A stretch of DNA of 25,518 bases, taken from positions 1 to 25,518 of IMG/VR virus record IMGVR_UViG_3300028844_006088. One strand, given 5' to 3'. Below the pieces are notes generated by a model, which was not told where the DNA came from, searched no databases, and saw nothing but the letters and a program-made list of their open reading frames with translations. Origin of the DNA: a virus. Its lineage: Duplodnaviria > Caudoviricetes. Positions within the stretch are counted from its first letter, which is position 1; every line of letters begins with the position of its first letter. A program made the translations under genes and the position numbers. Below, one piece after another: positions 1-17,083 of the stretch.

Positions 1-1815
1 TGGTGTTCTTCCTGTATGTGAATAAGATGTGCCAGTGACTACCGGTGAAATCGCACTGAAGGATGAATTGTCTGTGCTAAAGTAAACTGTATAGTTATCC
101 GTATTGGCACTTGCTGACCAGCTAAGGTCAATTTGTGTTGTTGAAACGGTAGTTGCAGATAAGTTCGAAACGGGAGTACTTGGTGGTTCATTACCGGAAT
201 CCACCACTGTTGCTATTGTTTGTGCGGCAGCACCATTGTAAAAACTATCAGCGGAACTACCAGTCAAAGTAATTGTTACAGTTTGATTACCATCAGTTGC
301 ATTATCTTCAACTGCTGTTAGATTGATCGTTTGTGCTGTGCTGTAATTACCAGAACTAAAAACAAGTGTGGTAGGTGAAGCTAGAATCTCACTACTATCA
401 TTATCGGTAATTGTGACTGTCACATTTGCTGTGGGTTCTGTATCAAGTTCAACATCAAAACTATCACCTGCTCCTGATTCAGTGACCGTGTTGTTTGTTG
501 AAATGGTAAAACTGAATCCCGCAATGTCATCATTTGTGATCGTAATTGTCTCTTGTTGAGTACCACTTTCAGTGGCGCTATCACCACCAGACACACCAGT
601 TATATCAAGAATGATTGTTTCATTGTTTTCTTGAACACGGTCACCAACAATATCAACTGAAGTTGTACCTGTTGTTGAGCCAGCAGTAATTGTAATTGTG
701 CTGCTATTGAGTGTATAATCATTACCACTACCTGTTGCTGTACCTGTAGCAGTAAGTGTGACGGTCGTGTTCGTGGTTGCTGTGGCACTTTGTGTTGCTG
801 TGATGGTGCGATTTGTCGTACCTGAGTTACCTTCAGAAACAGATGTAGTTGCGGTGAGAGTAACAGTTGGAGCGCCTAGAGTGGTTGCGTTTGCCGTGTT
901 TGATTGACCACTCACTCCATAAGCATTGTTTGAGATCAGATAATAATAGTAAGTTGTTGCTGCGGTTCGTCCTGTGTGTGAGTAGGTAGTTCCTGTGACT
1001 ACTGGTGAGATTGCGCTAAAGGATATATTGTCTGTGCTGAAATAGATCGTATAGTTATCTGTATTTGCGGTTGCCGTCCAACTGAGGTCAACTTGATTTG
1101 AATAGGGAGCAGTAGCTGACAAATTCGAAACAGCAGAGGGTGGATCATTACCTGAATCAACTACAGTGACAGGTGTTGTATCTGATAGGCCATTATAATT
1201 GCTATCGGTAGAACTTGTAGTGACTGTGAGAGTTTCATTTTGATTGTTGTCTGTTACATTATCTTCAATAGCGGTCAGAGTGATTGTCTGTGATGAACTA
1301 TAATTACCAGAACCAAAAACGATTGTGCTTGGTGAAAGAGTAAACTCTCCCGTATCTGAAGAAGTCAATGAAAGAGTTACATCATTGGTTGGAGGTGTGT
1401 CTAATACAATTGAAAGTGTATCACCAGCACCAGATTCTGTGACAGAGTTAGAACCACCTGTAAGTGTAAAAGTGAGTCCAGGTGTTTGATTTGAGTCGAC
1501 TACTGTGACAGGAGTTGTATCTGTCACGCCATGATAAATGGTATCGTTTGAAGTTGCTACAAGTGTGATGGTGACTGATTGATTTGAATCAGCAGCATAA
1601 TCTTCAATTGGTGTGAGACTAACAGTTTGTGCTGAATTGTAGTTGCCCGGAGTAAAAGTAAGAATCGATGGAGAGACTGTGACTTCTCCTGTATCACCAG
1701 AAGAAACAGCAATCGTGACATTATCTGTAGGAGCAGCATCCAATACAACAGTGAAGTTGTCGCCAGCACCCGATTCAGTAACAGAATTGGAACCGCCTGT
1801 GAGGGCGATTGTCAT
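1..1815 (-). repeat. Intragenic domain repeats, order A-A-FN3-Calx-A-FN3
   Basis: Unit A (TESGAGD...VVDS) at about 1815-1490, 1475-1150 and 520-195. FN3 copies at about 1145-880 and 185-1 show visible nucleotide similarity (e.g. atagttatc and ccggtga/ctggtga blocks). Boundaries are approximate. Confidence 0.8.
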
Positions 1816-1989
1816 TGTTCCAGAACCAGGACCTCCGCCACCAGAACCATCATCTTCTTCATCTGGTGGGAAATCTATGTCATAAATTATGGTGCCTTCA
1901 CAAATATCACCAACACAAATATTATCACAGCCTGAAAAGGTGAATGATATGACTGATAAAAAGAACAAATAAAATATACACCGAATCAT
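1..1989 (-). CDS. Large repeat lipoprotein with Calx-beta-like and fibronectin type III domains (3' end runs off the window; not in ORF track)
   Basis: Manual translation from ATG at 1989 gives MIRCIFYLFFLSVISFTFSGC (lipobox-like FSGC), an acidic/Gly linker, repeated TESGAGD...GNYSSAQT...IED...VTVVDS units, FN3-type segments (VSNLSAT..VDLSW..Y.IY...TYSHTG...YYY) and a Calx-beta-like segment (SVSEGNSG...GTATGSGNDY...GDRVQENNET...TITNDD). No stop was seen before the window edge. Confidence 0.85.
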   Translation of the reverse strand, partial: MIRCIFYLFFLSVISFTFSGCDNICVGDICEGTIIYDIDFPPDEEDDGSGGGGPGSGTMTIALTGGSNSVTESGAGDNFTVVLDAAPTDNVTIAVSSGDTGEVTVSPSILTFTPGNYNSAQTVSLTPIEDYAADSNQSVTITLVATSNDTIYHGVTDTTPVTVVDSNQTPGLTFTLTGGSNSVTESGAGDTLSIVLDTPPTNDVTLSLTSSDTGEFTLSPSTIVFGSGNYSSSQTITLTAIEDNVTDNNQNETLTVTTSSTDSNYNGLSDTTPVTVVDSGNDPPSAVSNLSATAPYSNQVDLSWTATANTDNYTIYFSTDNISFSAISPVVTGTTYSHTGRTAATTYYYYLISNNAYGVSGQSNTANATTLGAPTVTLTATTSVSEGNSGTTNRTITATQSATATTNTTVTLTATGTATGSGNDYTLNSSTITITAGSTTGTTSVDIVGDRVQENNETIILDITGVSGGDSATESGTQQETITITNDDIAGFSFTISTNNTVTESGAGDSFDVELDTEPTANVTVTITDNDSSEILASPTTLVFSSGNYSTAQTINLTAVEDNATDGNQTVTITLTGSSADSFYNGAAAQTIATVVDSGNEPPSTPVSNLSATTVSTTQIDLSWSASANTDNYTVYFSTDNSSFSAISPVVTGTSYSHTGRTP

Positions 1990-2003
1990 GACACCGTTTT
2001 TGA

Positions 2004-2489
2004 TTAAGATCCTCCAGCTGCACAATAATCAGCAATCAATCGTATTACAACATCTCTTGAACGTTGATTATCAATCACTATGTCGCCCAGTAACATTCCA
2101 CGAAACTTTTTACCTCTGGCAGAAATACTTTCAGCTTCGCTCATTTTTTTAGCAAAATCAATCCATATGATTTCACGGAAATTTCCAACACCTAAAATTT
2201 CTTTTGTACACTGTCGAATATATGACATACTTACTAAAGGTTCCATTCTCACTACAATTTTATCATGATAAAACCCTGACATCATTGCATTTTTACGACT
2301 TTCATCTAAAATATAAAATGAACAAACAGGATAAACTAAACATATTTCAAATTTAAGTTTAGGTAATTCAATTCGTAGATGAGAACTCGCTTGTATATTT
2401 GATGGTGTAAAACTAAGGCTACTTAGTATTGCGAGAATGATCGTAATTTTGTTGAATCTGAATTTTTCGATCATATGCGGTTTGTTCAT
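2004..2489 (-). CDS. Exported protein, probable inactive thermonuclease (SNase)-fold paralog
   Basis: N-terminal hydrophobic stretch ending in NIQA. Collinear similarity by eye to the 3223-3681 product, but without DGDT and DxPE. Confidence 0.55.
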   Translation of the reverse strand: MNKPHMIEKFRFNKITIILAILSSLSFTPSNIQASSHLRIELPKLKFEICLVYPVCSFYILDESRKNAMMSGFYHDKIVVRMEPLVSMSYIRQCTKEILGVGNFREIIWIDFAKKMSEAESISARGKKFRGMLLGDIVIDNQRSRDVVIRLIADYCAAGGS

Positions 2490-2546
2490 CCTTTGCGTCT
2501 GTGATAAAAATTATGGCTGCGATAAAAATAAGAATAGCTAACATTA

Positions 2547-3251
2547 TCAGCACTTTACATATTGTGTGTCGACGCAGGATTGACCCGAGAATTGAAATCC
2601 AACAAAGAATACTGTTGAATTATATTGAGTTAAATATCCAACATCTTCATCGAAATCAAGCTTGACTTTATTCTGCATGTTCATTCGATGCCAACCAAAG
2701 GCAATATTTTCATCATATTCGTAAATTGTTAGCAAACCGATACCATACAGCAAGTCAATTCCATATCCTCTTGGATATTCTCTGGTTGAACCATTTGCTC
2801 CGGTATAATCTTTTGTGAATGAAGCAAGTCCTAAGCCGCCAAAAATATCTGCTGAAACAGAAAATTTGTGATTTTCAAATGGCTTGTATCCTCTACCATA
2901 TCCAATATGATAAACAAAAGGATGTAGAAGTGTTAGATTATTGCTATGCCGACTACCATCTGTTCCATCAAATGAGTTGACAAAATCAGTCTTCATGGTA
3001 GACATGCCTCTTGTTCGACTGAATTGGCTTCGTTTGGTATCTAATTGATAATCCCACATTGCTTCGAAGGAAAGCCCTTTGACACCTTCATCAATACCAT
3101 AATCAACTTCTTCATATTTACCAGTTGCTTCTCCCCAACCAAACCAGGCTCTTTTTTCCATGGAAACGTCTTTTGGTCTTAATGTCCCTGATAAACATCC
3201 ATTGAGAAACAGAACTAAAAGACTAAGAACACCAATCGATATTTTCTTCAT
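2547..3251 (-). CDS. Lipoprotein with outer-membrane beta-barrel-like sequence
   Basis: Likely start MKKISIGVLSLLVLFLNGC (lipobox-like LNGC). Alternating aromatic/Gly strands (YHIGYGRGY, DIFGGLGLASF, LLYGIGLLTIYEY, VFFVGFQF). Confidence 0.6.
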   Translation of the reverse strand: MKKISIGVLSLLVLFLNGCLSGTLRPKDVSMEKRAWFGWGEATGKYEEVDYGIDEGVKGLSFEAMWDYQLDTKRSQFSRTRGMSTMKTDFVNSFDGTDGSRHSNNLTLLHPFVYHIGYGRGYKPFENHKFSVSADIFGGLGLASFTKDYTGANGSTREYPRGYGIDLLYGIGLLTIYEYDENIAFGWHRMNMQNKVKLDFDEDVGYLTQYNSTVFFVGFQFSGQSCVDTQYVKC

Positions 3252-3681
3252 ATGGTTTACCCAATCCCTTTTCAATCATTAATTCAGCAACATTTACATC
3301 ATCCACATAAATGTCTGCGACAATGCGAAAATATTTACCACGATCTAAATTGTGAAGTTCAATTCTTTTACCATTATTTAGAATTGAACGAATAAAATCT
3401 CTTGCTTTATAAGCCATTTCTTTTTCAGCTGGACATTTACCACGAATTTCTGGTGTATCAATTCCACGAAGCCTCACTGGCATTTTATATCCAAAAATGT
3501 CTGGAACATTGTTTATATTAAATCGACAAGTATCTCCATCATAACAATTCACGTATTCAACATATCGAAAATATTCACGATAAGGAGGAATATCTTTTTT
3601 TGTTTGAGCAAATGATTGTGGAACAGGATGAGCACATTGAGCAACAAGTATTATAAAGAATAAAAACATTATCTTACGCAT
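3223..3681 (-). CDS. Exported thermonuclease (staphylococcal nuclease family), possible lipoprotein
   Basis: Motifs YDGDT, VRLRGIDTPE, KYFRIVADIYVD and LMIEKGLGKPY. N-terminus MRKIMFLFFIILVAQC, with GGAG 6 nt before the ATG at 3681. Confidence 0.9.
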   Translation of the reverse strand: MRKIMFLFFIILVAQCAHPVPQSFAQTKKDIPPYREYFRYVEYVNCYDGDTCRFNINNVPDIFGYKMPVRLRGIDTPEIRGKCPAEKEMAYKARDFIRSILNNGKRIELHNLDRGKYFRIVADIYVDDVNVAELMIEKGLGKPYEENIDWCS

Positions 3682-3949
3682 TTTCATCTCCTCTCTCAAC
3701 TTTAATCTTTGATGTAAATTTCAATGGTGATTTCACAACAGCAATCGCATTCGAATGTCTTGCTTTCAGCACAATTCTTTCACCGTTCACATCAATCAGT
3801 TGTGATTTCGATTGCGGGCATGTTTTACGACAAAACTCTCTCGCCTCTTCCATAGCGTTTTCATAAGATGAATACATCCATGATTCAACTTCTTCACCAG
3901 ATGTGTTATAGTATTCAACACACCAAGCATTATTTTCTGTTAGATCCAT
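3674..3949 (-). CDS. Hypothetical phage protein
   Basis: ORF tiles between its neighbours with short overlaps; start could be 3949 or 3955. Confidence 0.65.
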   Translation of the reverse strand: MDLTENNAWCVEYYNTSGEEVESWMYSSYENAMEEAREFCRKTCPQSKSQLIDVNGERIVLKARHSNAIAVVKSPLKFTSKIKVERGDENA

Positions 3950-5321
3950 TTTCATTTTCCTTTTTTTCACTCATTTGATTAAATAGGCGGTAGAGTTTAG
4001 TGTGATATTTATTCTTTTCTTTTTCAGGATCTGTTGCGACATCAAGGGCATAGAGTAATTCACCGAAAATTCTTTTGAACATATCAAACTTTTTCTCATA
4101 ATCTTCTCCACCGAAATAACGAATTTCAATACGCTCTGCCTTTCCTCTCTTCTTTGATTGATTTGAAAAACTAAAATGTGATAAATTGACTGTTTGCCAT
4201 TTACCACCAATCGATGAACGAAGTGCGAATAGCAAATCATTCTTACCAAATTTCATATTCTTTTCAACCATTTGACCAAGTAAATCTTTGTCTGCTGTTT
4301 GTTGTTTGTCTTTTAGATATCCACGAATTTTTTTGAGAGAACTCTTGACATACTCGGCATGTTTACGGTCTGAAAAGAGTTTATTCGATTGTGATTGACT
4401 TTCATTTGAAAATAAAATAAACTTGAGAGCATCAAAGTTTTTCATTCGTTCTGGTGTAAATGAAATATTGATATGTAATCCACACTGAGCATCTCGTTTA
4501 TTTTTATCTTTTTGTCCAGTAGTTTCAGAATGATGTGACTTTGTGTTGCCATTTTTCTTGATGTAATCAAACATACCTCTTGTCACTTCAATTGCTTGAG
4601 AGGTATTCATAACTGGTGAAATAAATTCAATACCACCTAAGGTCGCAAGAACAGAAAGGTCTGTGCCAATCGTCCATCGAGATGGATCAGAGGTGTCACC
4701 TGTTGTGATTTTAGGAGTTTTTACAAAAGATGGGCGATTACTTTCTTGACTATAATACTTTTTGATTTCCGCATTTGGTGTTTCAGTATTGGCAGTATCC
4801 ATAATCAACATCAAAAATTGTAGAAGTTTTTTACTGTCATTATTATATGTCTTGAAGATTTCTTTTTTATAGTCACCTTCTGCCATATCTTTCGAAGATT
4901 TTTCTAATGATGAATTGACGTAGCGATAAGTTAGGTCAGCTAATTCTCTTTTGTTGATTCCGTTTTTTGAAAAAAAGGAATAAAGATCCTTCGAATCTTG
5001 TCCCTCAAAGTCTCCAAGAATTTGATCAACTGAGACAATTTTCTTTTTTTGACTGGCTTTGCTGACATAATCCCCCGCATTCAGTCTTTTTGATTTGTTT
5101 TCTTTAACAATCTTCTTATTTTTTTCTTTGACTTCGTTGATTACATCCACATAACGACCAAGAATTAGAACATCAGTAGCACTTGGTCTGTTTGTTGCTT
5201 CCAAGAACTTTTCATTATAAAATTCAAACTCAAGACCTACTTTGAAATCTTCATTTGAAAACAGTGATTTGATTTCTTTTTGTTTTACATCTTCGACAAA
5301 GTATGAGTTAAAGCCAAGCAT
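3930..5321 (-). CDS. Putative amidoligase (Amidoligase_2 / COOH-NH2 ligase family)
   Basis: Ordered motifs GLEFEF, DLS, GIEFISP, CGLHINIS, K..TVNL and IEIRYFGG. Confidence 0.8.
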   Translation of the reverse strand: MLGFNSYFVEDVKQKEIKSLFSNEDFKVGLEFEFYNEKFLEATNRPSATDVLILGRYVDVINEVKEKNKKIVKENKSKRLNAGDYVSKASQKKKIVSVDQILGDFEGQDSKDLYSFFSKNGINKRELADLTYRYVNSSLEKSSKDMAEGDYKKEIFKTYNNDSKKLLQFLMLIMDTANTETPNAEIKKYYSQESNRPSFVKTPKITTGDTSDPSRWTIGTDLSVLATLGGIEFISPVMNTSQAIEVTRGMFDYIKKNGNTKSHHSETTGQKDKNKRDAQCGLHINISFTPERMKNFDALKFILFSNESQSQSNKLFSDRKHAEYVKSSLKKIRGYLKDKQQTADKDLLGQMVEKNMKFGKNDLLFALRSSIGGKWQTVNLSHFSFSNQSKKRGKAERIEIRYFGGEDYEKKFDMFKRIFGELLYALDVATDPEKEKNKYHTKLYRLFNQMSEKKENENGSNRK

Positions 5322-5322
5322 A

Positions 5323-5736
5323 TTAGTTTATATATTGAGATAAAGGTTCTGCGATATATTTTTCTTTAGTATATTGATCAATTGCTTCTTGTCCAAAAAG
5401 AAGTCTTTCAAGTTCTCCCTGTTTATTTCTCATTTCAACAAAGCTTGAAATCAAGTCAACTTTTTGTTCTTCAATAAACTTTTTTGTGAGGACTGCTGAT
5501 GTTAGAGAATCGCAACTAAACATGTTGAAATATAATCCAATTCCACCTTCTAAGTATAATTCAACAAGAATTTGTAAGTTGCGAAACATAGCCAAACGAG
5601 CAATGATTTTATTTTCATATTCAAATACATTTTCAGGCTTATAAGTTTTTTCAACACCTTCAATATGTAATTTGTTTTCTTTACAGTAAGCAACAAACTT
5701 TTGAATTTTTAAATCAATCTCTTGCTCTTGTGTCAT
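5323..5736 (-). CDS. Hypothetical protein
   Basis: ATG at 5736 (MTQEQEID) directly follows GAGGAG. The longer 5772 start lies inside a terminator hairpin. Confidence 0.7.
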   Translation of the reverse strand: MTQEQEIDLKIQKFVAYCKENKLHIEGVEKTYKPENVFEYENKIIARLAMFRNLQILVELYLEGGIGLYFNMFSCDSLTSAVLTKKFIEEQKVDLISSFVEMRNKQGELERLLFGQEAIDQYTKEKYIAEPLSQYIN

Positions 5737-5746
5737 TCTCCTCTTT

Positions 5747-5782
5747 AAAATAAAAATAGGGAGCATATTCACATACGCTCCC
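5747..5782 (-). terminator. Intrinsic terminator after phoH
   Basis: Minus strand reads GGGAGCGTAT-GTGA-ATATGCTCCC (10 bp stem with one G-U, GNRA loop), then TATTTTTATTTT. Confidence 0.8.
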
Positions 5783-5810
5783 TGTTATAAGTATGTGCAT
5801 TATATTTATG

Positions 5811-6608
5811 TTAATTCACAGAGGCTTCCTCTATTTGGTATTCTCTACCGTTGATGAGTGCGCCATTAACAGAAGTTCGTTCAATTTTATGACCAGAATA
5901 TATTTGTCTTTCCTTCCTTTCTTTATGATAGGCATTCATTGCGATAATATAGTCTTTGATGAAATCGTTTCGCACGATATCTTTTTCTTGAAAACTGACA
6001 ATTTTGAACCCTGAAACTCGTTTAGCAATTTCATAAAACTCACGAAGACCACTTTCTCGGTCGTCTAAGTCTGTTTGCATAAAATCACCAGCAAGGACAA
6101 GGCCTGTATTCTTACCAATTCTTGTGACAACTGTATGAAGTTCTACAGATGAAAGGTTTTGAATCTCATCAACAAAAATGATTGTGTTATCAATTGTTGT
6201 TCCTCGTAGGAAGGAAGTTGAACAAAATTCGACTAAACCTTTTTTCTCAAGAATTTCCCAAGCATCACCTCTTTTAAAAAGTTCATTCACAATTGACTGA
6301 TAAGGTCTCTTGTAAACAGCAATCTTTTCTTCTTCTGATCCTGGAAGATATCCAATATCTCTTGAGGGCACACAAGAACGGCAGATTAAAACTTTGTGAT
6401 AAGGTGATTGCGGGTCAAACACCGCTTCTAAACCTAAGTAAGTGGATATAAAACTCTTGCCTGTTCCGGCTGATCCCATAAGTATCATGTTAAAGCCGTC
6501 ATACCAAGCATCAAATGTTTGGTTTTGTGCATGAGTCATTGGTTCAATCTCTTTCATACTCAAAGAGATTTGTTCAGATCTAGAAACTTGTGCTTTTTTT
6601 CTTGACAT
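5811..6608 (-). CDS. phoH: PhoH family ATPase
   Basis: GSAGTGKSF, IGYLPGSEEEK, SFLRGTT, VDEIQN, TRIG, GDFMQTDL and DIVR motifs. Confidence 0.95.
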   Translation of the reverse strand: MSRKKAQVSRSEQISLSMKEIEPMTHAQNQTFDAWYDGFNMILMGSAGTGKSFISTYLGLEAVFDPQSPYHKVLICRSCVPSRDIGYLPGSEEEKIAVYKRPYQSIVNELFKRGDAWEILEKKGLVEFCSTSFLRGTTIDNTIIFVDEIQNLSSVELHTVVTRIGKNTGLVLAGDFMQTDLDDRESGLREFYEIAKRVSGFKIVSFQEKDIVRNDFIKDYIIAMNAYHKERKERQIYSGHKIERTSVNGALINGREYQIEEASVN

Positions 6609-6635
6609 GGTAACTCCTGTAAATGAAATAGGAAT

Positions 6636-6676
6636 TACTCAGGCCATCTTTCACTCAGGAGCGATGACCTGAGTGA
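6636..6676 (-). promoter_or_regulatory. Structured leader upstream of phoH with two alternative hairpins
   Basis: mRNA segment TCACTCAGGTCATC can pair with either CCTGAGTGA or GATGGCCTGAGTAA. Confidence 0.5.
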
Positions 6677-6718
6677 CAGTTACTTTTGTTTTTGGATCGG
6701 ATACCTCCATGAATTCTG

Positions 6719-6976
6719 CTAAAGATCCATACCACCTAATTGATTGCCATGATAGTTCTTTTTGATCTCACGCAATTTATCTCGAAAGCCTTCCGAAGGT
6801 TTCTTGCCAGTAAGAGCAAAATTGTCGTATCCTATCCGAGGAGAAGCAACATCGAGTGTCAGCTTACAATCAGACCTATCGCAATCTTCGTTTTCAGGTG
6901 TGTGTCTTTTAGCTATGGTTGTATGAATCTCAAAATTTTTGCCGCACTTAGCGCATGAATATTCATAAAAGGGCAT
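6719..6976 (-). CDS. FmdB-family zinc ribbon protein
   Basis: MPFYEYSCAKCG...C....C and GFRDKLREIKK. This family is commonly next to phoH in T4-like phages. Confidence 0.85.
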   Translation of the reverse strand: MPFYEYSCAKCGKNFEIHTTIAKRHTPENEDCDRSDCKLTLDVASPRIGYDNFALTGKKPSEGFRDKLREIKKNYHGNQLGGMDL

Positions 6977-6996
6977 ATAATCTCCATCTAAAATAT

Positions 6997-7004
6997 TATA
7001 AATA
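6997..7004 (+). promoter_or_regulatory. T4-type late promoter
   Basis: Exact TATAAATA, ending 38 nt upstream of the ATG at 7043. Confidence 0.75.
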
Positions 7005-7042
7005 AAATCAAGTTCACAACATTATTTATCAAAAAAGAGAAA

Positions 7043-8665
7043 ATGAAATCATTTAGTCAATTTTTAACAGAAGCAAGAAAAAACCCAGAAAAGAACGTCA
7101 AAGAATTTCCAGTGAAGTCATTAGAGAAGTATAAAGATGATGATGATGTCTTTATTACTTTTATTGCGAATGCAAAAGATTTCACAGAAACAGGCAAAGA
7201 TGATTATTTGGCGGCTCAAGTTGGTTTGAATACCAAGTCAAAGTACAACACACCAAATGGCATCTATACATATCCAATGGTTGAAGTCTATCAACAATAT
7301 GTTGGAAACTATACAGGGCAACATGATTTTTTTGACAAGCATAAAGGTCTAAAAAGATTCAATGTTCCCTTTGCTGGTGACCAGCCAAAAATTGGCGTGC
7401 TTCGACGTGTTGGTAAAAATCATATTGATGATATTGGTTCTGGTGAATATTCGCATGCAAAACTTGCGGGTGATACTGAAAAAATTGTCAAGTATACAAC
7501 TCAAAAACTCATGAAAATTTTGAATGTAAAGAATGAATATCTAATGTTTTTGATTGTATGTGCCACATGTCAATACGCTTTCACTCGAGCAGCAAAAGAC
7601 ACACCAGGAATGCAATTCTGGAACGCAACTCGATTATGTGCTGCTCTCATTGCATTAGCCCATGAGAAAAAGAAACTTACTGGTGATGTTCGATCATCAA
7701 AGACAACTGCTCAAAGAAGTTTTCGACTTGGTGAAACCATGCCAAAAATGTCAGCCTGGTGGCTTCTTGGAAATCGAAAAGACCTTGAAGAGAATTATGA
7801 TCCAGACAAACCAAGAAAAATTCCACCAAAACTATTAACTAAAGTATATGATACTGTTCAAAAAATGAAAGGCGATAATAAGGCTTTGACCGCGGCAAAT
7901 ATTTTCAATCCATCTGGTGAAAAGAAAGAACAGGGTAAATCAAATCCATATGCGAATGCCTGGGCAGTTTTATTGATTCGAATTGGATATAATTCAATTG
8001 CGGATCGAAGTGGTAAGAGAGTGATTCACTCCGCTGAACCAACTCAAGCAGTTTTCTTGGCAAGAAGAGGATACAAAGTTCTTGAAATTATTGAGAATAA
8101 AACATATGAAGATCGTAAACCAATTCTTCAACAATATAGTGAACTCAAAACGGATGAGAAAAGAGCCGACTTTCTTCAGAGAATGGAAAACAATGGTATT
8201 GTTCAAGGACAAGAAAATGTTCGACTATGGCGTTTTTTTGAAACATTAAAATCAAATAGTATTGTAGTGAATTCGGATGTTCTCGAAATCTTAGTCAAGA
8301 AAGAACCACATACAGCGGCAGAATTTCATCGCACAGGACATTCAGTTCAAGTGATCAATGACCTGATGAAAATTGGTCTCAAAGAAAAAGCCAGTACTCT
8401 AACTGTTTATGTAGCAAGAGGACCTGAGTGTAAAATTAAACCAGAAACAATTGTCTTTGGTCTCAAAGAACTTCTTCGTCAGAAAAAGGATGCGAATCCT
8501 AAAAGTATGGATTCACCACTGCTTGATATTCGTCAGTCACTGAGAATGTATGAAAACAAATGGAACAAACAAACTGAGGATGTGATTCAAGCGTTCCGCA
8601 AGGCCAAAGAAAAAGCTCAGGCGGATGCTACAGAATATCTCAAATCAGAAAAGAAGGCATCATGA
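7043..8665 (+). CDS. Probable virion-internal protein with ADP-ribosyltransferase-like motifs
   Basis: N-terminal MKSFSQFLTEA resembles the T4 capsid-targeting sequence. Motifs NTPNGIYTYP and GYNSIAD...IHSAEPTQAVF. The ORF is certain; the function is inferred. Confidence 0.55.
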   Translation: MKSFSQFLTEARKNPEKNVKEFPVKSLEKYKDDDDVFITFIANAKDFTETGKDDYLAAQVGLNTKSKYNTPNGIYTYPMVEVYQQYVGNYTGQHDFFDKHKGLKRFNVPFAGDQPKIGVLRRVGKNHIDDIGSGEYSHAKLAGDTEKIVKYTTQKLMKILNVKNEYLMFLIVCATCQYAFTRAAKDTPGMQFWNATRLCAALIALAHEKKKLTGDVRSSKTTAQRSFRLGETMPKMSAWWLLGNRKDLEENYDPDKPRKIPPKLLTKVYDTVQKMKGDNKALTAANIFNPSGEKKEQGKSNPYANAWAVLLIRIGYNSIADRSGKRVIHSAEPTQAVFLARRGYKVLEIIENKTYEDRKPILQQYSELKTDEKRADFLQRMENNGIVQGQENVRLWRFFETLKSNSIVVNSDVLEILVKKEPHTAAEFHRTGHSVQVINDLMKIGLKEKASTLTVYVARGPECKIKPETIVFGLKELLRQKKDANPKSMDSPLLDIRQSLRMYENKWNKQTEDVIQAFRKAKEKAQADATEYLKSEKKAS

Positions 8666-8892
8666 AAACTTTCTCAGACTTTTATTCTGATATTCAGAAT
8701 ATGAAAACACCTGCTGGTGAAGCTTCTGAGCCTTCAGAGGGGCAAATTGAAGAGAAGTGGTCGGACAAGAGAAAACGAACGATAGATTGTGACCGCCCTC
8801 GTGGCTTCAGCGAACGTGCCTCATGCCAAGGTAGAGAAAAGCGAAAACGAGAACGTGAACAACGAAGACGAAGATTTGCGAGGTTATATTGA
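8662..8892 (+). CDS. Small protein with acidic leader and basic Cys-containing C-terminus, probable internal head protein
   Basis: MKTFSDF start, EEKWS..RKRTIDCDRPRGFSERASCQGR motif, ATGA overlap with the upstream gene. Confidence 0.65.
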   Translation: MKTFSDFYSDIQNMKTPAGEASEPSEGQIEEKWSDKRKRTIDCDRPRGFSERASCQGREKRKREREQRRRRFARLY

Positions 8893-9596
8893 CACCATAC
8901 ACTTATATTATTGAATGTAAACCAATTAGTAAAAAATATTATGGAGTAAGATATGCGAAAGGCTGTAAACCAGATGACCTTTGGAAAACATATTTTACCT
9001 CATCAAAAATTGTTCGAAACTTAATTGAAACATATGGCAAAGAATCTTTTGAGATTCAGATCGATAAAGAATTTGAGACAGTCGAAGAAGCGATTGACTA
9101 CGAACATCAATTTATAATTACTAACAATCTTTCTAGCAATCCTAATTGGCTAAACGTACATCGCAGAAAAGCTATCGATTTCAATGATCCTGTTATTAGT
9201 GAAAAGTTATCAATAGCACGAAAAGGACGAGTAACTTCAGAAGAAACAAAAAAGAAGCTAAGTGCGATAGGTAAGGGTAAGAAATTATCAGAAGAAACAA
9301 AAAGAAAGATTAGTGAGAGTAGTAAAGGTAAAACAATATCTCAAGAATCTATCGATAAAGCTAGAGAATCAAAAAAGAAGAGTGGTAAAAATCAAGGTGA
9401 AAGTCACTGGACTTATGGCAAGCAGAGAGATGAAGAGACAAGAAGAAAGATTAGTGAGGCGCTAAAGGGGAAGTCTTACAATGTTGGGTATAAACACGAA
9501 AAGAGAGTGTGCCCTCATTGTAATTTAGAGGGCGCTGGAGGAAACATGACAAGGTTTCATTTTGATAATTGTAAAAAACGTCAGTCTGGTAAGTAG
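8889..9596 (+). mobile_element. Free-standing GIY-YIG (Seg-like) homing endonuclease with NUMOD3-type repeats
   Basis: YTYIIECKPISKKYYGVR, repeated SEETK(K/R)K(L/I)S...KGK, C-terminal CPHC...HFDNC. The TTG start overlaps the upstream TGA. Confidence 0.85.
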
Positions 9597-10018
9597 TTCC
9601 AATTGGGATAGACTTTCTGAACAACTTTCTTTTTCAGTCCAGGATAACTTTTCAGGTTCTTATCTTTGATTTCATTGATCAATTGTGCTTCATGAGGTGA
9701 AAGATTCTCAAGCATATCAATCCACACTTGTTCTTTTTTCATTTCATTCAAATGACTTGCGTTGTGATTGACAAACATTTCAATGGTCCGGCGATTCGCA
9801 TACAACAAAGTCGAATTATATAAATCAGCTTCCCCTGGACTTTCATAAGGAGGATCACCTTCTGGCAAATTGATTTTATGATCTGCTGAAAAAGTGAGCA
9901 GTAATAAAAAATCAATCATTTCATTACGATTTTCTTTTAAATGTTTTACTTTTTCTAAATGTGTTTTCTTTTCTGAAATTTCCTGAAACACTAAAGGAAT
10001 TGATCTTACATTTTGCAT
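9581..10018 (-). CDS. Conserved T4-like hypothetical protein (possibly DUF6433)
   Basis: LPEGDPPY and E..WIDMLENL...EA.L...IKDK.L..YPGL motifs; family name is recalled, not verified. Confidence 0.7.
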   Translation of the reverse strand: MQNVRSIPLVFQEISEKKTHLEKVKHLKENRNEMIDFLLLLTFSADHKINLPEGDPPYESPGEADLYNSTLLYANRRTIEMFVNHNASHLNEMKKEQVWIDMLENLSPHEAQLINEIKDKNLKSYPGLKKKVVQKVYPNWNYLPD

Positions 10019-10024
10019 ATTTAC

Positions 10025-11098
10025 CTATAAATCTATAAATGCTTGAAACACGCAAAACTTATCTGTTGAGCGATATTCATTGTTTTTGAGTTCGATTTCT
10101 TCTTTTCTTCGAACAATCACATGTTTTGATAATTTTTTTGCCATTAGCTCATGCTTTGATTTTGCCAAATAACGAATGGCACTTTCAAGATTCTTACCAT
10201 AAACTACAATCTTTTCAGCACGATCTATATTTGTCAAAAAGGCTGAACGAGTTTCAATTCCTGATTTTGATTCAAGTCGAATCAATGAACGCTTGTCTTG
10301 AGAAGCGAGATAGACAACTCTCTTACCAATCAAATATTTCATATCAATCTGAGGAAATTCAAAAACAGATGTTGAGAACTTTAGTTTACGAATCAATTCT
10401 TCAACGGGCTTCAACCGAACAGCACGTTTCTTTTTCTTTTGTTCAGTGACAACACTCTTCACTGAAAGAAGTTCTTCCTTGACTTGTTTAAGATTTTTGA
10501 AAATTAGATTTTGCTGACGCCTTGTCAGAAAAGAATATGCTTCTTTGACCTCTTCATCACTTTGAATATGCCTCAAATCATTCAAATGATCTTTCTCGAG
10601 CATCTCAGCGATTTCAGTTGATTGAGATTTATTTAGTTCGTAGATTGTCAGAATTGATTGTGCTGTGATTTCTTTCTTACCTTTCGAATCAAACAATTCT
10701 TCGATTTGATTTTCAAGGTAAGCATAGGCATCATAGGTTCGTTTCCCATTCCTTTGTTCAGTCGAAACACGAACTACAATTTCAGTCTTTTTTGTAGGAC
10801 GAACTTCTTTTTGTAATTTTTCAATAAAGGAATCAAGGCGTCGAACTAATTCTTCAGGTAGAGTGTTACCATTTGAAATCAATCTTGCACACCAGCAGTA
10901 GGAGAAAGGAAGATAGCTTTGACTATTGATGTTTTTTCTTTGACTTTCGGTTCTCGCATAGTTAATCAAGAATTGTTTTGCATCTTTATCAGTAAAATTT
11001 TGCCGATACCAGTTATACTTATGAAGAACATCAAATTCACTGAGAACAAGTGATTCGGGTTCACGAATACTCATCTCTTGTTTTCTTCTTCGTTTCAT
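10025..11098 (-). CDS. Conserved T4-like hypothetical protein
   Basis: 357 aa ORF with YNWY and LKEAYSFL-like motifs; GGAG upstream. Confidence 0.7.
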   Translation of the reverse strand: MKRRRKQEMSIREPESLVLSEFDVLHKYNWYRQNFTDKDAKQFLINYARTESQRKNINSQSYLPFSYCWCARLISNGNTLPEELVRRLDSFIEKLQKEVRPTKKTEIVVRVSTEQRNGKRTYDAYAYLENQIEELFDSKGKKEITAQSILTIYELNKSQSTEIAEMLEKDHLNDLRHIQSDEEVKEAYSFLTRRQQNLIFKNLKQVKEELLSVKSVVTEQKKKKRAVRLKPVEELIRKLKFSTSVFEFPQIDMKYLIGKRVVYLASQDKRSLIRLESKSGIETRSAFLTNIDRAEKIVVYGKNLESAIRYLAKSKHELMAKKLSKHVIVRRKEEIELKNNEYRSTDKFCVFQAFIDL

Positions 11099-11116
11099 CT
11101 CAAAACTCCAATAATG

Positions 11117-11332
11117 TTAAGCAATGGCAGTGAGTGATTCTTTCCAATTAGATGTTGAACAATTTTTAGCAAGAAGCATAAAGTTGTCTCTTGTTTCAAA
11201 AATACCTTCACCCACAATTTCATCAACTAAAAAAGGTTGTGTTTCAAACACGCAAAAATCACCATTTTCATCAATCGCATGATATTTTGCCCAGTCAGGC
11301 ATTTCAAATAGTAGGTCCACTTTGTTTTTCAT
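11117..11332 (-). CDS. Small phage hypothetical protein
   Basis: PDWAKYHAIDENG...P...NWKESL pattern common in phage proteins; GGAG upstream. Confidence 0.75.
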   Translation of the reverse strand: MKNKVDLLFEMPDWAKYHAIDENGDFCVFETQPFLVDEIVGEGIFETRDNFMLLAKNCSTSNWKESLTAIA

Positions 11333-11624
11333 TTTGAATCTCCATAGTATTAAAAATTTCAGTCAACGTATTTTTTTGACCATCAGCAAACATTAACTTT
11401 ACATCGATTTTTTCACTCAATTCTTCATTCATTGCATTGAACATGTGAGTTACTCCTTCTTTTGTTGTATAAGATTGAGTAAATCCCCAAACATCTGGTT
11501 CAGAAGCATCACGATTTTTCCATTTAGCAAATAAAATATAAAGCCCTGAAGTTGATCCTGTACCTGTCGCAGAACCCAAAACAGGCACATTTTCAACCAT
11601 TTTTTTCAATTCATTATAATTCAT
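11304..11624 (-). CDS. Hypothetical protein
   Basis: ATG with AGGA upstream; tiles with its neighbours. Confidence 0.7.
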   Translation of the reverse strand: MNYNELKKMVENVPVLGSATGTGSTSGLYILFAKWKNRDASEPDVWGFTQSYTTKEGVTHMFNAMNEELSEKIDVKLMFADGQKNTLTEIFNTMEIQNEKQSGPTI

Positions 11625-11631
11625 AAAAATC

Positions 11632-12372
11632 CTAATATTTTTGTTGATCGTATGGATGAATTCTCAATTCTTTAATTGGGAATCCATAAAAAACTCTTGG
11701 ATTTGGATTTACATGATTTGCCTTAAAAATCAATAGAAAATGTTTTTGAGCAAATCTTCTTATCCAAGTTTTGTCAGCCATCTGTTCCTTTGAAGAAATT
11801 AATTGATCCGCATATGAATCAAATATTTCCACCTTTGCTCTTTCAGCCGCTTGCTTTGTAGCATCAGCATTATCAATCTTAAATGTCGGAGGATGCCCAT
11901 CAAACGTCGATGCTGAACTTAAAATATCAAATGTCTTTTTATCTGCTCGAAAAGCTAATTTATCTAATTGAGGATCATATACAAGTTGGTCATTCAAAAA
12001 AATATAAGAATTAATTACTTGTTTATTTCCAGAACTATCAAAACGATATTCTTGCCATCGAACATCAGGTGCTTGTATATCATTTACTTGACAAAAATAA
12101 GGATCAGTAGCAAGGGCACCTGTTTCACGAAAGTCTCTTCTTGAAAAAAGAATATCATAATTATCTACATAGAATTTTTTCTCAACAGCAGAGTAACTTT
12201 TTTCAACATATTTATCCAAACCATCACCAGAAACATGACCTAACTTAAAAGAAATTTTATAGATAAATTGTGTTCTTTCATCAAAAAGATACATCTTTGT
12301 ACCATCTTTGACCACATAACTATTTTGTTCTCTCGCAAATTCGGTTGGAAAGGTAAGTCTTGTTTTTGACAT
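11632..12372 (-). CDS. Hypothetical protein
   Basis: 246 aa ORF with no recognised motif. Confidence 0.75.
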   Translation of the reverse strand: MSKTRLTFPTEFAREQNSYVVKDGTKMYLFDERTQFIYKISFKLGHVSGDGLDKYVEKSYSAVEKKFYVDNYDILFSRRDFRETGALATDPYFCQVNDIQAPDVRWQEYRFDSSGNKQVINSYIFLNDQLVYDPQLDKLAFRADKKTFDILSSASTFDGHPPTFKIDNADATKQAAERAKVEIFDSYADQLISSKEQMADKTWIRRFAQKHFLLIFKANHVNPNPRVFYGFPIKELRIHPYDQQKY

Positions 12373-12389
12373 CTCTATCTCTTTTTATA

Positions 12390-12890
12390 TTAAAATGAAG
12401 TTTGTTGGTTCGGCCTTTTAAATAGCGACAATGTTTGAGCATTCATTGCCGAACATTTGTTCAAATAATCTGTAAACAAAGGAACATCTTTTGCTGTGGC
12501 TCTTGTAAACTCATACTGAAATTCGGCTTGGTCGTTGTTTTCACGATAGCTATCCATGACACATGAACAAACAAAGCCGGATGATGCTTGAGCAATTTGT
12601 GGTTGAACATTCTCATATTGAAATCTTTGCATCATAATTGTACCACAGAAGTTCATAAATTGACCAATCATTGCAGTAGGATACTTAACTTTTGGATAAT
12701 CATCTGGAAGAATTTTTAGCCATTCAAAAGGATTTTTTCCTTTAAATCGGTTTGAATTAGGAACTTGTTTTTGCTCTTGCTTAGGTGTTGGTGTGTAATC
12801 ATAATCAAAATCTGGTCCCTTGTGGGTATCCGCATAAGTCAATGAAACTGTCATCAGAATACAAGAAATAGCGATAATAAACTTTTTCAT
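12390..12890 (-). CDS. Exported Cys-containing hypothetical protein
   Basis: Likely start MKKFIIAISCILMTVSLTYA (signal peptide) after AAGGA; C...CSC...C pattern in the mature part. Confidence 0.7.
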   Translation of the reverse strand: MKKFIIAISCILMTVSLTYADTHKGPDFDYDYTPTPKQEQKQVPNSNRFKGKNPFEWLKILPDDYPKVKYPTAMIGQFMNFCGTIMMQRFQYENVQPQIAQASSGFVCSCVMDSYRENNDQAEFQYEFTRATAKDVPLFTDYLNKCSAMNAQTLSLFKRPNQQTSF

Positions 12891-12910
12891 AAAGATTGTC
12901 CTTTGTTTAT

Positions 12911-12926
12911 GCACTCTGCGGAGTGC
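12911..12926 (-). other. Intergenic hairpin downstream of the helicase
   Basis: GCACTC-CGCA-GAGTGC with no U-tract on the minus strand. Confidence 0.4.
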
Positions 12927-12964
12927 CGATTGTTAATTGTATTTATTCAACTTTTTAAAAAAAG

Positions 12965-14506
12965 TTAAGCTGCAACTGACATTTCGGTATTGGCAGTTTC
13001 TTCATCTACACTTGGGAACAATCGTGAACATGGTCCGAGTTCCAAGACTCTTTTTGCTCGAGTTACAGCAACGTAAAACAGGTTTTTCTCCATCAATGGA
13101 GCCTCGGAAAAAGAGATAGGTATACGAACTTTTCTTCCTGATTCATCCATATCTGAACGATAGAAAACATTCTCAGCATCGTCAGCTATAGTCACATGGT
13201 TCCATTCTTTACCTTTAGACTTGTGCATTGTTGTGATCATGGTAGCATTGGCAGGAATGTTTTTCTGAGCATCTTTGATACGCTTGAGATTATCAAGAGC
13301 CATTTCAAATCCACCAATCTTATCAATCACTCGCAAGGCAGTTTTCCATTCATTATTTAGCAAATCCTCTTCTAGTTCTTTGTGAAACTGCTCAATGTTT
13401 CTCAGACCTTTCAGGTCAGGGTGTGAAACATTGTAGGTATCACCAGCATTGAGGGATACAAGGTTCTCAATCATCTTGAATCCTTCATTGTCAACGCCAC
13501 CCTCAAGAGCAAAGGTCTTTTCATCTTCAAGCATTTGAAATGCCTCAGTCAGACAACCCATGTTGGTGCGGCAGAGAACAGCAGAGGTGTCTTCTTCTTC
13601 AACACCTTCAAAGCCTTTCATTCGTAGGTCAGTCATATGCTCAAGCAACAGATTTGCCTTGTCAGCAATCTCTGGCAAAAAGCGGAAAGATTGTGTCAAG
13701 GTGTAGGTAGCTTCTGCTGGCATATCTTTCAAGAAGTCCTGTGCGCCACGAAATTGATAGATGGCTTGATTCGAATCACCCACAGCAATCAATCGTGCTT
13801 GAATGTGTGAAGCAATGTCAGAGAACACAGGATTGATATCTTGTGCCTCATCAAGCAACACAACGTCTTCAGCAATCTGAATATCATTGTAGTGAAGTTG
13901 AACGAGCTTAACATACATGTCATGTAACATCAAATCACTTGAAAAGCCAAACGAAGAAAATAGAGTTTTAGCGATCTCAAGTGCACGTTTCTTCTTCTTG
14001 TCAACTGCCTGAAGGATCTTTTCTGCTGGCATGTTGGTGAATCTCAGCAATTGAGAATGAAAGCGATCTTCAACTGATTTAGGAACGTGACGGAGTGTCA
14101 TTTCACTGTCATCGGAAATCATGAATTGGCGCATGATTTGAAATGCGGGATTTGCCAAGAACTTGTCATCACCGCTCAATCGCAAACGGTCAATTGTGTC
14201 TTTGACAGACATGTAGCCTTTGATGTTGCGGCTGTTACAGCCAGCACCTCGGGCCAATTCAAGGCAGAAGCCATTTTGAGTTTTAACTTTGATGTTGTCA
14301 AGACCACGACTTTTGGCCTTCTGCTGAACTTCTTCTTTAATTGCGGTGTTGAAGGCGAGGTAGAGGAAAGAAGTCTCAGGATGCTGCTTCACAAGCTCAA
14401 GCAGAGTGCTTGTCTTGCCAGTGCCGGCGAGTGCGAGGACTTTGATGTTGTTGCGAATTGCTTCGAAAGCGTCGAGGATAGCTTGTTGTTCTGAAGTAGG
14501 ATTCAT
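12965..14506 (-). CDS. UvrD-like superfamily 1 helicase
   Basis: ALAGTGKTST, LAFN, LDEAQD, VGDSNQAIYQFRGA, LTQSFRF, TMHKSKGKEW and YVAVTRAK. Confidence 0.92.
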   Translation of the reverse strand: MNPTSEQQAILDAFEAIRNNIKVLALAGTGKTSTLLELVKQHPETSFLYLAFNTAIKEEVQQKAKSRGLDNIKVKTQNGFCLELARGAGCNSRNIKGYMSVKDTIDRLRLSGDDKFLANPAFQIMRQFMISDDSEMTLRHVPKSVEDRFHSQLLRFTNMPAEKILQAVDKKKKRALEIAKTLFSSFGFSSDLMLHDMYVKLVQLHYNDIQIAEDVVLLDEAQDINPVFSDIASHIQARLIAVGDSNQAIYQFRGAQDFLKDMPAEATYTLTQSFRFLPEIADKANLLLEHMTDLRMKGFEGVEEEDTSAVLCRTNMGCLTEAFQMLEDEKTFALEGGVDNEGFKMIENLVSLNAGDTYNVSHPDLKGLRNIEQFHKELEEDLLNNEWKTALRVIDKIGGFEMALDNLKRIKDAQKNIPANATMITTMHKSKGKEWNHVTIADDAENVFYRSDMDESGRKVRIPISFSEAPLMEKNLFYVAVTRAKRVLELGPCSRLFPSVDEETANTEMSVAA

Positions 14507-14562
14507 ATCATCTCCATGATTTAAGTGTCAAGCATTCAGAGCGAAACGATTTTGCTCAATCA

Positions 14563-14601
14563 ATGATCAGATCATATCAGATCGAATTCAAAAGTCAAGA
14601 A
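14563..14601 (-). promoter_or_regulatory. Sigma70-type early promoter, copy 1 (upstream of helicase)
   Basis: TTGACT-16nt-TATGAT with TG extension and an AT tract upstream; motif repeated at 15783-15821. Confidence 0.75.
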
Positions 14602-14606
14602 CTTTT

Positions 14607-14756
14607 TTAAAAAAATTCGATTGCGGTCACCAAGACAATCCAAGCGAGATAGGGATAGAAAATCTTGGCGACCAGCGGTTGTTCTTTGTACTTCTCAATA
14701 AATGTCATCATTTTACCTTTTTCAGTTCGAATAGGATATCCGTTTGAATCTCTCAT
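14607..14756 (-). CDS. 49 aa membrane protein (not in ORF track)
   Basis: MRDSNGYPIRTEKGKMMTFIEKYKEQPLVAKIFYPYLAWIVLVTAIEFF; TGATG overlap with the upstream stop; alternative start near 14711. Confidence 0.6.
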   Translation of the reverse strand: MRDSNGYPIRTEKGKMMTFIEKYKEQPLVAKIFYPYLAWIVLVTAIEFF

Positions 14757-15112
14757 CAGCCGAACATCGGACGAGATTGACGGTCCATGCCAATGCCATA
14801 GATATCAGAAGACCTGCGACCCGCACTGATTCTGCGGTCTGTGCCACCGTCTCTGGGCTTTTCTCTGCGAGGGAATCTTCGTCGAGTGATACCACTGACT
14901 TCTGGATCAGTCCTGCGCTCAAGACCATATTTGGCTCTTTGCATGTTAAAAGGATATAGAATTTTTAGAAGTTGAATGCGAAGATTGCCCAGAGCCTCTT
15001 GCAATTCAGCATTTTCTTCTGGGCATCTCTTGATTTCTTGAACGATTGTATTTTCACATCGCTCAATCGATTGAACTGCTTCCATGAGTTGTTTTCTCGG
15101 ATCTGCCGACAT
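14756..15112 (-). CDS. Hypothetical protein, helical N-terminus plus Arg-rich ERR/DRR/GRR tail
   Basis: GGAGGAG ribosome binding site; ERRTD...RRRFPRR...DRRISAGRRSSD. Confidence 0.7.
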   Translation of the reverse strand: MSADPRKQLMEAVQSIERCENTIVQEIKRCPEENAELQEALGNLRIQLLKILYPFNMQRAKYGLERRTDPEVSGITRRRFPRREKPRDGGTDRRISAGRRSSDIYGIGMDRQSRPMFG

Positions 15113-15128
15113 GCTCCTCCTATATTGA

Positions 15129-15158
15129 TTTCAAATATTTGAGTAGTTTCAAATATTT
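15129..15158. repeat. 12 bp direct repeat TTTCAAATATTT x2
   Basis: Copies at 15129-15140 and 15147-15158; TCAAATATTTGA (15131-15142) is a perfect palindrome. Confidence 0.6.
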
Positions 15159-15159
15159 A

Positions 15160-15498
15160 TCAATTATAGATAATCACAGAAGGCAGTTGAGAAATTCGTT
15201 CTTGTAGTTCTAATACCTGGTCTTCAGTCAACCAACCAACTACAGTGTCATGTTCGCCGGTGATTTCATCAACAGAAACAAACTCATAGTTATCTTCTGA
15301 AACGTCATCTGAAGCAATACGAAGTAAACCTAACTCAAATAGTCCTTGGTCGCCTCCGTAAGAATGGCTGTGACAAATGACAGAAGTGGCGTAGCCATTG
15401 TTAAAGTATTTTTGATATTGTGCTCCTGAGCCATCATCAAATTTATGAGTGCTAGGAATTTCTAACTTTTGACCGAAGGGATGCTCACTCATTTTCAT
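15160..15498 (-). CDS. Conserved phage hypothetical protein
   Basis: FNNGYATSV...SYGGDQGLFELG...VVGWLT pattern frequent in phage early regions. Confidence 0.75.
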   Translation of the reverse strand: MKMSEHPFGQKLEIPSTHKFDDGSGAQYQKYFNNGYATSVICHSHSYGGDQGLFELGLLRIASDDVSEDNYEFVSVDEITGEHDTVVGWLTEDQVLELQERISQLPSVIIYN

Positions 15499-15607
15499 TC
15501 TCCTCTGGAACTGAAAAGAAAAATCTCAGAAAAACTTCAATAAAAATAACCATAATAATAATCGGCAAAAATGCGATTATAAACATCCATGTTTCAAAAT
15601 CAAGCAT
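15485..15607 (-). CDS. 40 aa single-pass membrane protein (not in ORF track)
   Basis: MLDFETWMFIIAFLPIIIMVIFIEVFLRFFFSVPEENENE; fills the gap between two genes. Confidence 0.55.
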   Translation of the reverse strand: MLDFETWMFIIAFLPIIIMVIFIEVFLRFFFSVPEENENE

Positions 15608-15610
15608 AGG

Positions 15611-15757
15611 TCAGCTTCGGAAAATTGCCAAAACTTCGGCAGTTGAGGTTGTGTTGTCAGGTTCACAATTGACACATTGATCCGTGCGATATGTTTCACT
15701 GTCAGGGAACAAACCGCACGAAGCAACAAATAGACTCAAAGCAATCAAAATTCTCAT
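15611..15757 (-). CDS. 48 aa lipoprotein (not in ORF track)
   Basis: MRILIALSLFVASC GLFPDSETYRTDQCVNCEP...; canonical lipobox VASC, AAGGA upstream, first gene after the promoter. Confidence 0.7.
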   Translation of the reverse strand: MRILIALSLFVASCGLFPDSETYRTDQCVNCEPDNTTSTAEVLAIFRS

Positions 15758-15782
15758 AATTATCCTTGGGTTGGTGTTCATC

Positions 15783-15821
15783 ATGATCAGATCATATCAG
15801 ACTGGATGAAAATGTCAAGAA
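15783..15821 (-). promoter_or_regulatory. Sigma70-type early promoter, copy 2
   Basis: TTGACA-16nt-TATGAT; 19 bp identical to copy 1 (plus strand ATGATCAGATCATATCAGA). Confidence 0.78.
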
Positions 15822-15829
15822 AAAAAATA

Positions 15830-16496: not shown

Positions 16497-16499
16497 TAT

Positions 16500-17036: not shown

Positions 17037-17057
17037 AATAACTCCATAATAAAAGAT

Positions 17058-17083
17058 CAAAAAACGGAGTCCGAAGACTCCGT
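17058..17083 (-). terminator. Intrinsic terminator with cUUCGg tetraloop
   Basis: Minus strand ACGGAGTC-TTCG-GACTCCGT followed by a T run, the classic T4-type terminator. Confidence 0.88.

Follow-up and report, generated by a model that had tools for sequence, protein, structure and literature searches.

What a T4-like marine phage would gain from a run of exported proteins is the question raised by the locus described here. The window, which is the whole 25.5-kb virus record IMGVR_UViG_3300028844_006088, carries at one end four consecutive genes on the minus strand for a nuclease, a predicted beta-barrel, a catalytically altered nuclease paralog (pseudonuclease) and a giant lipoprotein (Table 1). 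An earlier note had read these genes as a single four-gene envelope apparatus. The comparison of related loci leads to a different division: the barrel, pseudonuclease and lipoprotein genes form an accessory island, likely taken from bacteria of the SAR324 phylum, and the nuclease is a gene of the wider phage clade.

The phage itself is placed by its T4-type genes. Among the 33 proteins scanned in the window are the gp44 and gp62 clamp loader, the gp45 sliding clamp, a regA-like repressor, a dUTPase, a helicase and phoH. Since the clamp loader reaches at most 46 % identity to GenBank phages, no cultured phage is close to this lineage. The relative L014, in which the gene order is the same, lies on a 346-kb contig. 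No integrase was seen among the 33 proteins or in the open reading frame (ORF) list of a 58-kb relative, both records being fragments. Positions 1 to 6600 of the window are covered by half or more in 16 DNA runs, which are marine where labelled.

A signal-peptide heuristic is passed by seven of the 37 window genes, with all four block genes among them, and a run of at least four signal-bearing genes occurred in 1.6 % of 200,000 shuffles. The block genes overlap or lie 14 to 57 nt apart, an operon-like arrangement. The promoter scan of the window gave 27 promoter-like sites against 25.5 expected, which is chance level, and so are the two T4 late motifs in the window, neither of them in the block. 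Coordinates and heuristic thus agree with the four co-oriented, signal-bearing genes described earlier, and Pfam, HHalign and fold searches back the identities given to the genes, that of the dead nuclease paralog among them. The three proposed lipobox-like Cys motifs held up in part: LNGC of the barrel and FSGC of the lipoprotein are conserved in homologues, but VAQC of the nuclease, with Q at position -1, is doubtful as a lipobox. AAQC or VAQC is found there in 3/3 island-bearing relatives and is missing in both island-free relatives compared.

Table 1. Features of the block and the ORF within it (window positions; the lipoprotein gene continues past position 1)
Feature	Position	Strand	Basis or description
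Exported staphylococcal-nuclease-family protein, 152 aa	3223..3681	-	Pfam PF00565
Outer-membrane beta-barrel, 8-stranded (OmpX/Ail/OmpA-like), predicted, 234 aa	2547..3251	-	AlphaFold2, Foldseek
ORF of 41 aa, hydrophobic N-terminal stretch	2419..2544	-	same frame open in 7/7 loci examined
Exported pseudonuclease with staphylococcal nuclease fold, 161 aa	2004..2489	-	HHalign, AlphaFold2, Foldseek/VIA, alignment
Giant lipoprotein, 5' part (663 aa)	1..1989	-	lipobox FSGC, tag, Gly-rich linker, Calx-beta/FN3 stalk
Conserved tag EGTIIYDIDFP	1867..1899	-	ten residues past the predicted lipidated Cys; common to phage and SAR324 giant lipoproteins

The division into nuclease and island is based on six distinct island-bearing relatives (L016 repeats L001) and five sister loci. 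The complete order of nuclease, barrel, pseudonuclease and lipoprotein is kept in three of the six (L001/G001, L013 and L014), so the proposed synteny was found in relatives, but the nuclease proved separable and the order variable. The short contig L018 has barrel, pseudonuclease and a type 2 lipoprotein, L015 has no barrel before the pseudonuclease and L017 no lipoprotein after it. The lipoprotein array differs between relatives in how many genes it has and how their domains are arranged: G001 contains three tandem genes (1543 aa, 1943 aa and one cut), and L013 and L014 contain at least two each, the second gene being different. In the sister loci L019 to L023, four of which are nearly identical, phoH, an amidoligase-like gene and the nuclease stand in the same order and are followed by an unrelated gene of 967 or 1026 aa. 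Barrel, pseudonuclease and giant lipoprotein are each absent from all five sister contigs, which are 22 to 68 % complete. As the nuclease keeps its place in 5/5 island-free loci, it is a clade gene, and what has been inserted as a variable island is the remaining three genes; the single four-gene apparatus is thereby abandoned. On these comparisons, the island is an accessory part of this T4-like phage genome.

The nuclease matches PF00565 with 43.2 bits (E 5.9e-11; cut-off 21). Aligned to 1a2t, its six catalytic positions D48, D50, R70, D75, E78 and R119 are intact and invariant in 5/5 sequences; we take them to correspond to D19, D21, R35, D40, E43 and R87 of staphylococcal nuclease (SNase). 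A relative occurs in 91 GenBank phage records, the cyanophage endonuclease phrog_452 is related by family, and in the SAR324 phylum the nuclease profile matches 34 of 88 genomes with no cluster pattern. Judged from this distribution and the sister loci, it is a gene of the wider phage clade and not specific to the island. It shares fold and catalytic residues with the SNase family; exported DNases borne by mobile elements, such as Dns of CJIE1, are counted with this family among the nearest known systems. It differs by a signal peptide, four Cys and its pairing with a rare exported, catalytically altered paralog. Two further SNase observations concern genomes of the comparison set: G068 (L098, G068:C22) has a tandem SNase pair, and G007 has ten SNase matches, several with identical scores, perhaps lying on a mobile element.

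The kinship of the pseudonuclease to the nuclease is visible only by profile and fold comparison. Pairwise BLAST between the two block proteins is not significant (E 1.1), there is no Pfam SNase match, the profile finds nothing among PDB sequences and the Atlas model is poor. An alignment of 15 pseudonucleases matches the nuclease alignment with an HHalign probability of 93.5 (E 2.4e-7). The AlphaFold2 model has a predicted local distance difference test score (pLDDT) of 82.6; every Foldseek row shown for it is a staphylococcal nuclease (E 0.004 to 0.02), which is also the best VIA-align match (Z 8.4, root-mean-square deviation 3.7 over 95). The acidic catalytic positions D, D, D and E are replaced by V52, P54, V86 and S89, both catalytic Arg positions are retained (R81 and R130), and the four Cys align with those of the active nuclease. 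The family is rare, with nine matches among 1.84 billion representatives. Some homologues (L066:1844-2353, L067:7938-8363 and P0028) bear a His-rich N-terminal extension, which suggests metal binding.

For the barrel, no Pfam, PHROG or NCBIfam match was obtained and its assignment is structural. One of five AlphaFold2 models is confident (pLDDT 71.7 vs 26 to 48) and shows eight long strands. Its best Foldseek match is Ail (E 1e-6) in a closest set of Ail, OmpX, NspA and OmpA, and the Atlas model reaches a template modelling score of 0.81 to a cluster of outer membrane proteins. The usual 8-stranded outer membrane protein has a cleaved type I signal peptide and ends at the aromatic residue of the last strand. 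The phage barrel differs in both respects: it has a lipobox, LNGC, invariant in 5/5 aligned homologues, in place of the type I signal, and its chain runs on for 13 residues past the last strand, two of them invariant Cys. Slam/type XI secretion, which we take to involve a large DUF560 barrel with a TPR domain adjoining its lipoprotein cargo, is not matched by a protein of 234 aa with an 8-strand model and no Pfam match; only the layout of a barrel before a lipoprotein is alike.

The giant lipoprotein is cut by the window end. Its orthologue in L014, where it opens the variable tandem array, has 1760 aa, is 87.5 % identical over the window part and additionally carries LamG and an RCC1-type propeller. 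Calx-beta, FN3, LamG and RCC1 make up the domain set of the family, as found by a domain scan of the G001 copies and the precomputed Pfam annotation of P0056; Pfam also agrees with the Calx-beta and FN3 domains read earlier in the window copy. The stalk is Ig-like and acidic, rich in Thr, Ser and Asp (20 % Thr, 13 % Ser). The N-terminus shows a basic n-region, a hydrophobic h-region and a lipobox Cys, by heuristic of the signal peptidase II type. The consensus tag EGTI[IV]YDxD[FY]P and the lipobox Cys are found together in 15 N-termini (five phage, ten host), most with a Gly-rich linker; [GS]C is present in all 15 and the Cys is invariant in 14/14 aligned.

These features lead to SAR324. A LamG profile built from phage sequences only gave 14 loci in 185,579 species genomes, the four strongest being in SAR324 JCVI-SC AAA005 and two bins placed in its family by the genome tool, one of which the tree tool labels Myxococcota, NCBI-style. 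Among 88 SAR324-phylum genomes, ten match LamG, eight of them strongly. The phage-only barrel profile matches five of the 88, the pseudonuclease profile seven and the tag profile seven (two to seven places each); the tag profile and the extended barrel profile include host rows, and their counts are partly by construction. LamG, barrel, pseudonuclease and tag matches centre on the same eight genomes, G002 to G005 and G055 to G058, with 2 to 12 LamG matches per genome; the expanded family of giant tagged lipoproteins and the barrel loci are nearly absent from the other 80. As a small control, the barrel profile matched none of five non-SAR324 genomes.

Host lipoprotein genes are multicopy and chromosomal, with ABC transporters, pheS-like and other bacterial or housekeeping genes as neighbours. 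They have the same domain set, lipobox and tag as the phage copies and in some loci a barrel upstream, but the phage copies stand in tandem with phage codon use and the phage barrel has a lipobox. Up to six barrel loci per genome occur in the cluster, and a barrel lies directly upstream of a lipoprotein gene in three of six locus types. The 11 closest host barrels are 26 to 32 % identical to the phage barrel and have the C-terminal Cys pair in common with it; their signals are type I, with no lipobox. Host pseudonucleases keep one of the two catalytic Arg, and G002 has three copies, two of them apparently truncated. Taken together, the JCVI-SC AAA005 group of SAR324 is the likely host, and the three island genes were likely taken from SAR324 bacteria. 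Atlas look-alikes had pointed to a host among the Spirochaetes or Bacteroidota; this was rejected, as the likeness is at fold level only and the LamG matches there are weak.

A further link between phage and host is an exchange tract within lipoprotein 2 of the relative G001. This gene is 86 % identical to G057:C20 over 1,679 nt, including a 163-nt exact match, 89 % identical to G004:C10 over 385 nt, and 71 to 74 % identical to G004:C75 and G057:C141 over 1.5 to 1.9 kb. In codons 73 to 529, the third positions of identical residues are equal in 57 of 200 cases and the host G+C content at third codon positions (GC3) is 0.72. In codons 731 to 1030, they are equal in 234 of 247 cases, with a GC3 of 0.31 in the host vs 0.33 in the phage. 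For comparison, 110 of 176 are equal when phoH is compared between two phages. Phage genes have median GC3 values of 0.27 and 0.22, host genes of 0.44 to 0.55. In G004 and G057, the mosaic gene is flanked by livF/livG-like genes and a block of a major facilitator superfamily gene with higBA. The tract is likely a recent phage-to-host transfer or recombination.

The direction of the older event was read from a tree of 36 LamG domains, which left out rows below 150 aa, with X or duplicated and contains two long outgroup branches. The host C-terminal LamG falls inside the phage clade (99/96), and this clade lies among host LamGs (99/98); monophyly of the phage LamGs is rejected (approximately unbiased test, p 2e-7). 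Because of this nesting and the GC3 shift, an origin of the phage LamG in the host with a later return from phage to host is proposed. Composition is patchy and the tree discordant within the gene between G001 and G004/G057, which is not seen in the window fragment.

On balance, and with modest confidence, we favour the explanation that the island re-coats the infected SAR324 cell with giant surface lipoproteins of the host's own kind, in variants chosen by the phage, for attachment and shielding. For the block products in general, prediction supports the envelope destination proposed earlier; the lipoproteins, which retain the lipobox and the host tag, would take the host's path to the surface and not enter the capsid. 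They would be lipidated at the lipobox Cys and routed to the surface by host machinery, where the long acidic, Ser/Thr-rich Calx-beta/FN3 stalk would hold lectin-like LamG and RCC1-propeller tips outward. The barrel may be an Ail/OmpX-like surface protein or a lipoprotein helper, and the pseudonuclease a non-cutting binder. The nuclease probably has a role of its own, in the periplasm or on the cell surface. The infected cell would stick to particles or neighbouring SAR324 cells until lysis and might be shielded from grazers and rival phages. Lipoprotein genes would meanwhile shuffle between phage and host chromosome, the tract being seen in the relative and two host genomes. As predicted from its domains, an Ig-like stalk with variable lectin-like and propeller ends is the anatomy of an adhesin. 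This anatomy favours re-coating together with the proposal that SAR324 is particle-attached (PMC9031357). Of the three roles suggested in the earlier note, adhesion is therefore the best reading, and superinfection exclusion and DNA harvesting rank below it.

Several results weigh against the favoured explanation. Adhesion, shielding and receptor masking are fitted alike by the present results. The exchange tract belongs to the relative G001, and the window's own fragment has 68 % identity to the host over 344 nt, an old similarity. G004 and G057 are metagenome bins, each with the host gene in pieces on three contigs; four DNA runs contain both the phage and a host-type lipoprotein gene, and none of the contigs listed spans the mosaic junction. 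The phage barrel stands apart from all 11 host barrels on a long branch of its own and is nearer to copies that do not adjoin lipoproteins (31 to 32 % vs 26 to 27 %), and host pseudonuclease genes are not near barrels or lipoproteins, which also argues against simple capture of an operon. No CRISPR-spacer-like match to positions 1 to 20000 was found in five host genomes. The four RNA runs X17 to X20 gave fragments only, among them one 240-nt lipoprotein piece; most of the block is uncovered there, a gap which carries no information.

A more far-reaching version would have a lytic jumbo phage and SAR324 share a recombining pool of giant adhesin genes. The phage variants would be displayed on the infected cell by an undescribed route that uses the tag and a dedicated small barrel, made lipid-anchored by the phage, and new tips would be returned to the host chromosome. 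This version is rather unlikely.

Superinfection exclusion, in which the nuclease would destroy competitor DNA and barrel and lipoproteins would mask or out-compete the receptor, is considered unlikely. The intact catalytic set and predicted signal peptide of the nuclease speak for it, and host lipoprotein alleles appear hypervariable, which is frequent in phage receptors. Periplasmic DNases encoded by prophages are known to destroy DNA as it enters, as described for Dns of CJIE1 (PMC12378983). However, the nuclease occurs independently of the island, and PADLOC gave a weak SNase-domain match for it and nothing for the other three block genes. Genes of 5 to 6 kb with lectin-like tips would also be costly for exclusion alone.

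That the island is passenger DNA, with host genes in a hypervariable region serving as a shuffling pool for the host and idle in infection, would explain its absence from 5/5 sister contigs, its varying order and the lack of a clear island signal in the RNA runs. Selection speaks against idleness: the ratio of nonsynonymous to synonymous substitution rates (dN/dS) is 0.13 to 0.37 for all four block genes against L001 and L014, compared with 0.05 to 0.18 for phoH, so that all four are under purifying selection. The frames of 4.6 to 6.5 kb are intact in all full copies seen, tag and lipobox are kept, and codon use is ameliorated to the phage, with a phage-like island GC3 of 0.20 to 0.26. This alternative is thus judged improbable.

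More improbable still is a decoration of virions or lysis vesicles by the Ig-like and lectin lipoproteins that would aid binding to hosts or particles. Phage capsids and fibres can carry FN3/Ig-like and LamG domains, and the lipoprotein has a weak PHROG tail match (E 0.003). Set against this are the conserved N-terminal lipobox with its host-shared tag, the homologues being bacterial chromosomal genes, and the search of 50,697 GenBank phage records, in which three match the lipoprotein, by RCC1 only and at 16 % at most. The least probable alternative is phosphate or nucleotide harvesting, in which lipoproteins and pseudonuclease would catch extracellular DNA for the nuclease to cut and the products would feed replication: phoH, offered earlier as the link and located 2.1 kb upstream, is equally present with the nuclease in island-free sisters, and although the phage-clade pseudonuclease keeps both phosphate-binding Arg positions, its host counterparts do not, the block has no nucleotide transporter or phosphatase, and an 8-stranded barrel is too narrow as a DNA pore.

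The re-coating explanation has precedents on two sides. Lom of phage lambda is an Ail/OmpX-type barrel with the fold predicted for the phage barrel here. Lom, as an adhesion-promoting outer membrane protein, and Bor, as an outer membrane lipoprotein, change the host surface (PMC3594210). The proposed surface conversion by a phage-encoded barrel and lipoprotein is similar, but differs in the T4-like phage, the array of lipoproteins of 1,500 to 2,200 aa and the lipobox barrel with its Cys pair and no Pfam match. The cyanophage genes psbA and psbD are host-derived genes in marine T4-like phages with patchy G+C content and two-way exchange (PMC1484495). Like them, the lipoprotein genes have a homologue on the chromosome of the inferred host and show signs of intragenic recombination. 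Unlike them, they encode cell-surface and not metabolic proteins, form a paralogous array and belong to an uncultured host. The island would thus work like lom and bor and appears to evolve like psbA, and is a member of neither group.

In the literature searched at the level of titles and abstracts, no account was found of a SAR324 jumbo phage, of the present phage or its host link, of phage-borne giant Calx-beta/LamG/RCC1 lipoproteins or of the SAR324 lipoprotein family. The analysis names one SAR324 cluster as the specific, likely host of an undescribed lineage of large T4-like phages. Three elements are new: a SAR324 family of giant lipoproteins marked by a conserved N-terminal tag, a family of exported pseudonucleases, and an 8-strand barrel for which a lipid anchor is predicted. 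Host-phage gene mixing of the psbA kind would thereby reach beyond metabolism to the adhesins of the cell surface. If at least 15 kb of a lytic phage genome go into re-coating a doomed cell, the infected cell would have a surface phenotype affecting attachment, grazing and exclusion that is ignored by marine lysis models. If an adhesin pool is indeed shared, it would be a virus that drives how diverse the cell surfaces of a major marine lineage are and how its cells attach to particles.

Some minor features of the locus and its surroundings remain. The 41-aa ORF, missed by the earlier note, overlaps the start of the pseudonuclease gene in another frame and possibly encodes a small membrane protein. 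Upstream of the nuclease, at 3930-5321 (-), is a gene resembling Amidoligase_2 (Pfam E 5e-4, a match below the cut-off), present in all relatives including the island-free sisters; ligases of this type have been proposed as modifiers of the host wall. Two other signal-bearing genes, a lytic-transglycosylase-like gene at 21253-21855 (-) and a gene at 12390-12887 (-) for a 165-aa protein without known family, are present in G001 too. A homing-endonuclease-like gene at 8889-9596 (+) has no counterpart at this position in L014 or L001. Finally, two genes that lend themselves to an independent inference of the host are a guaC-like gene in G001 (G001:3381-4514) and a purN-like gene in the sister phage L023 (L023:9698-10270), both identified by reading the sequence.

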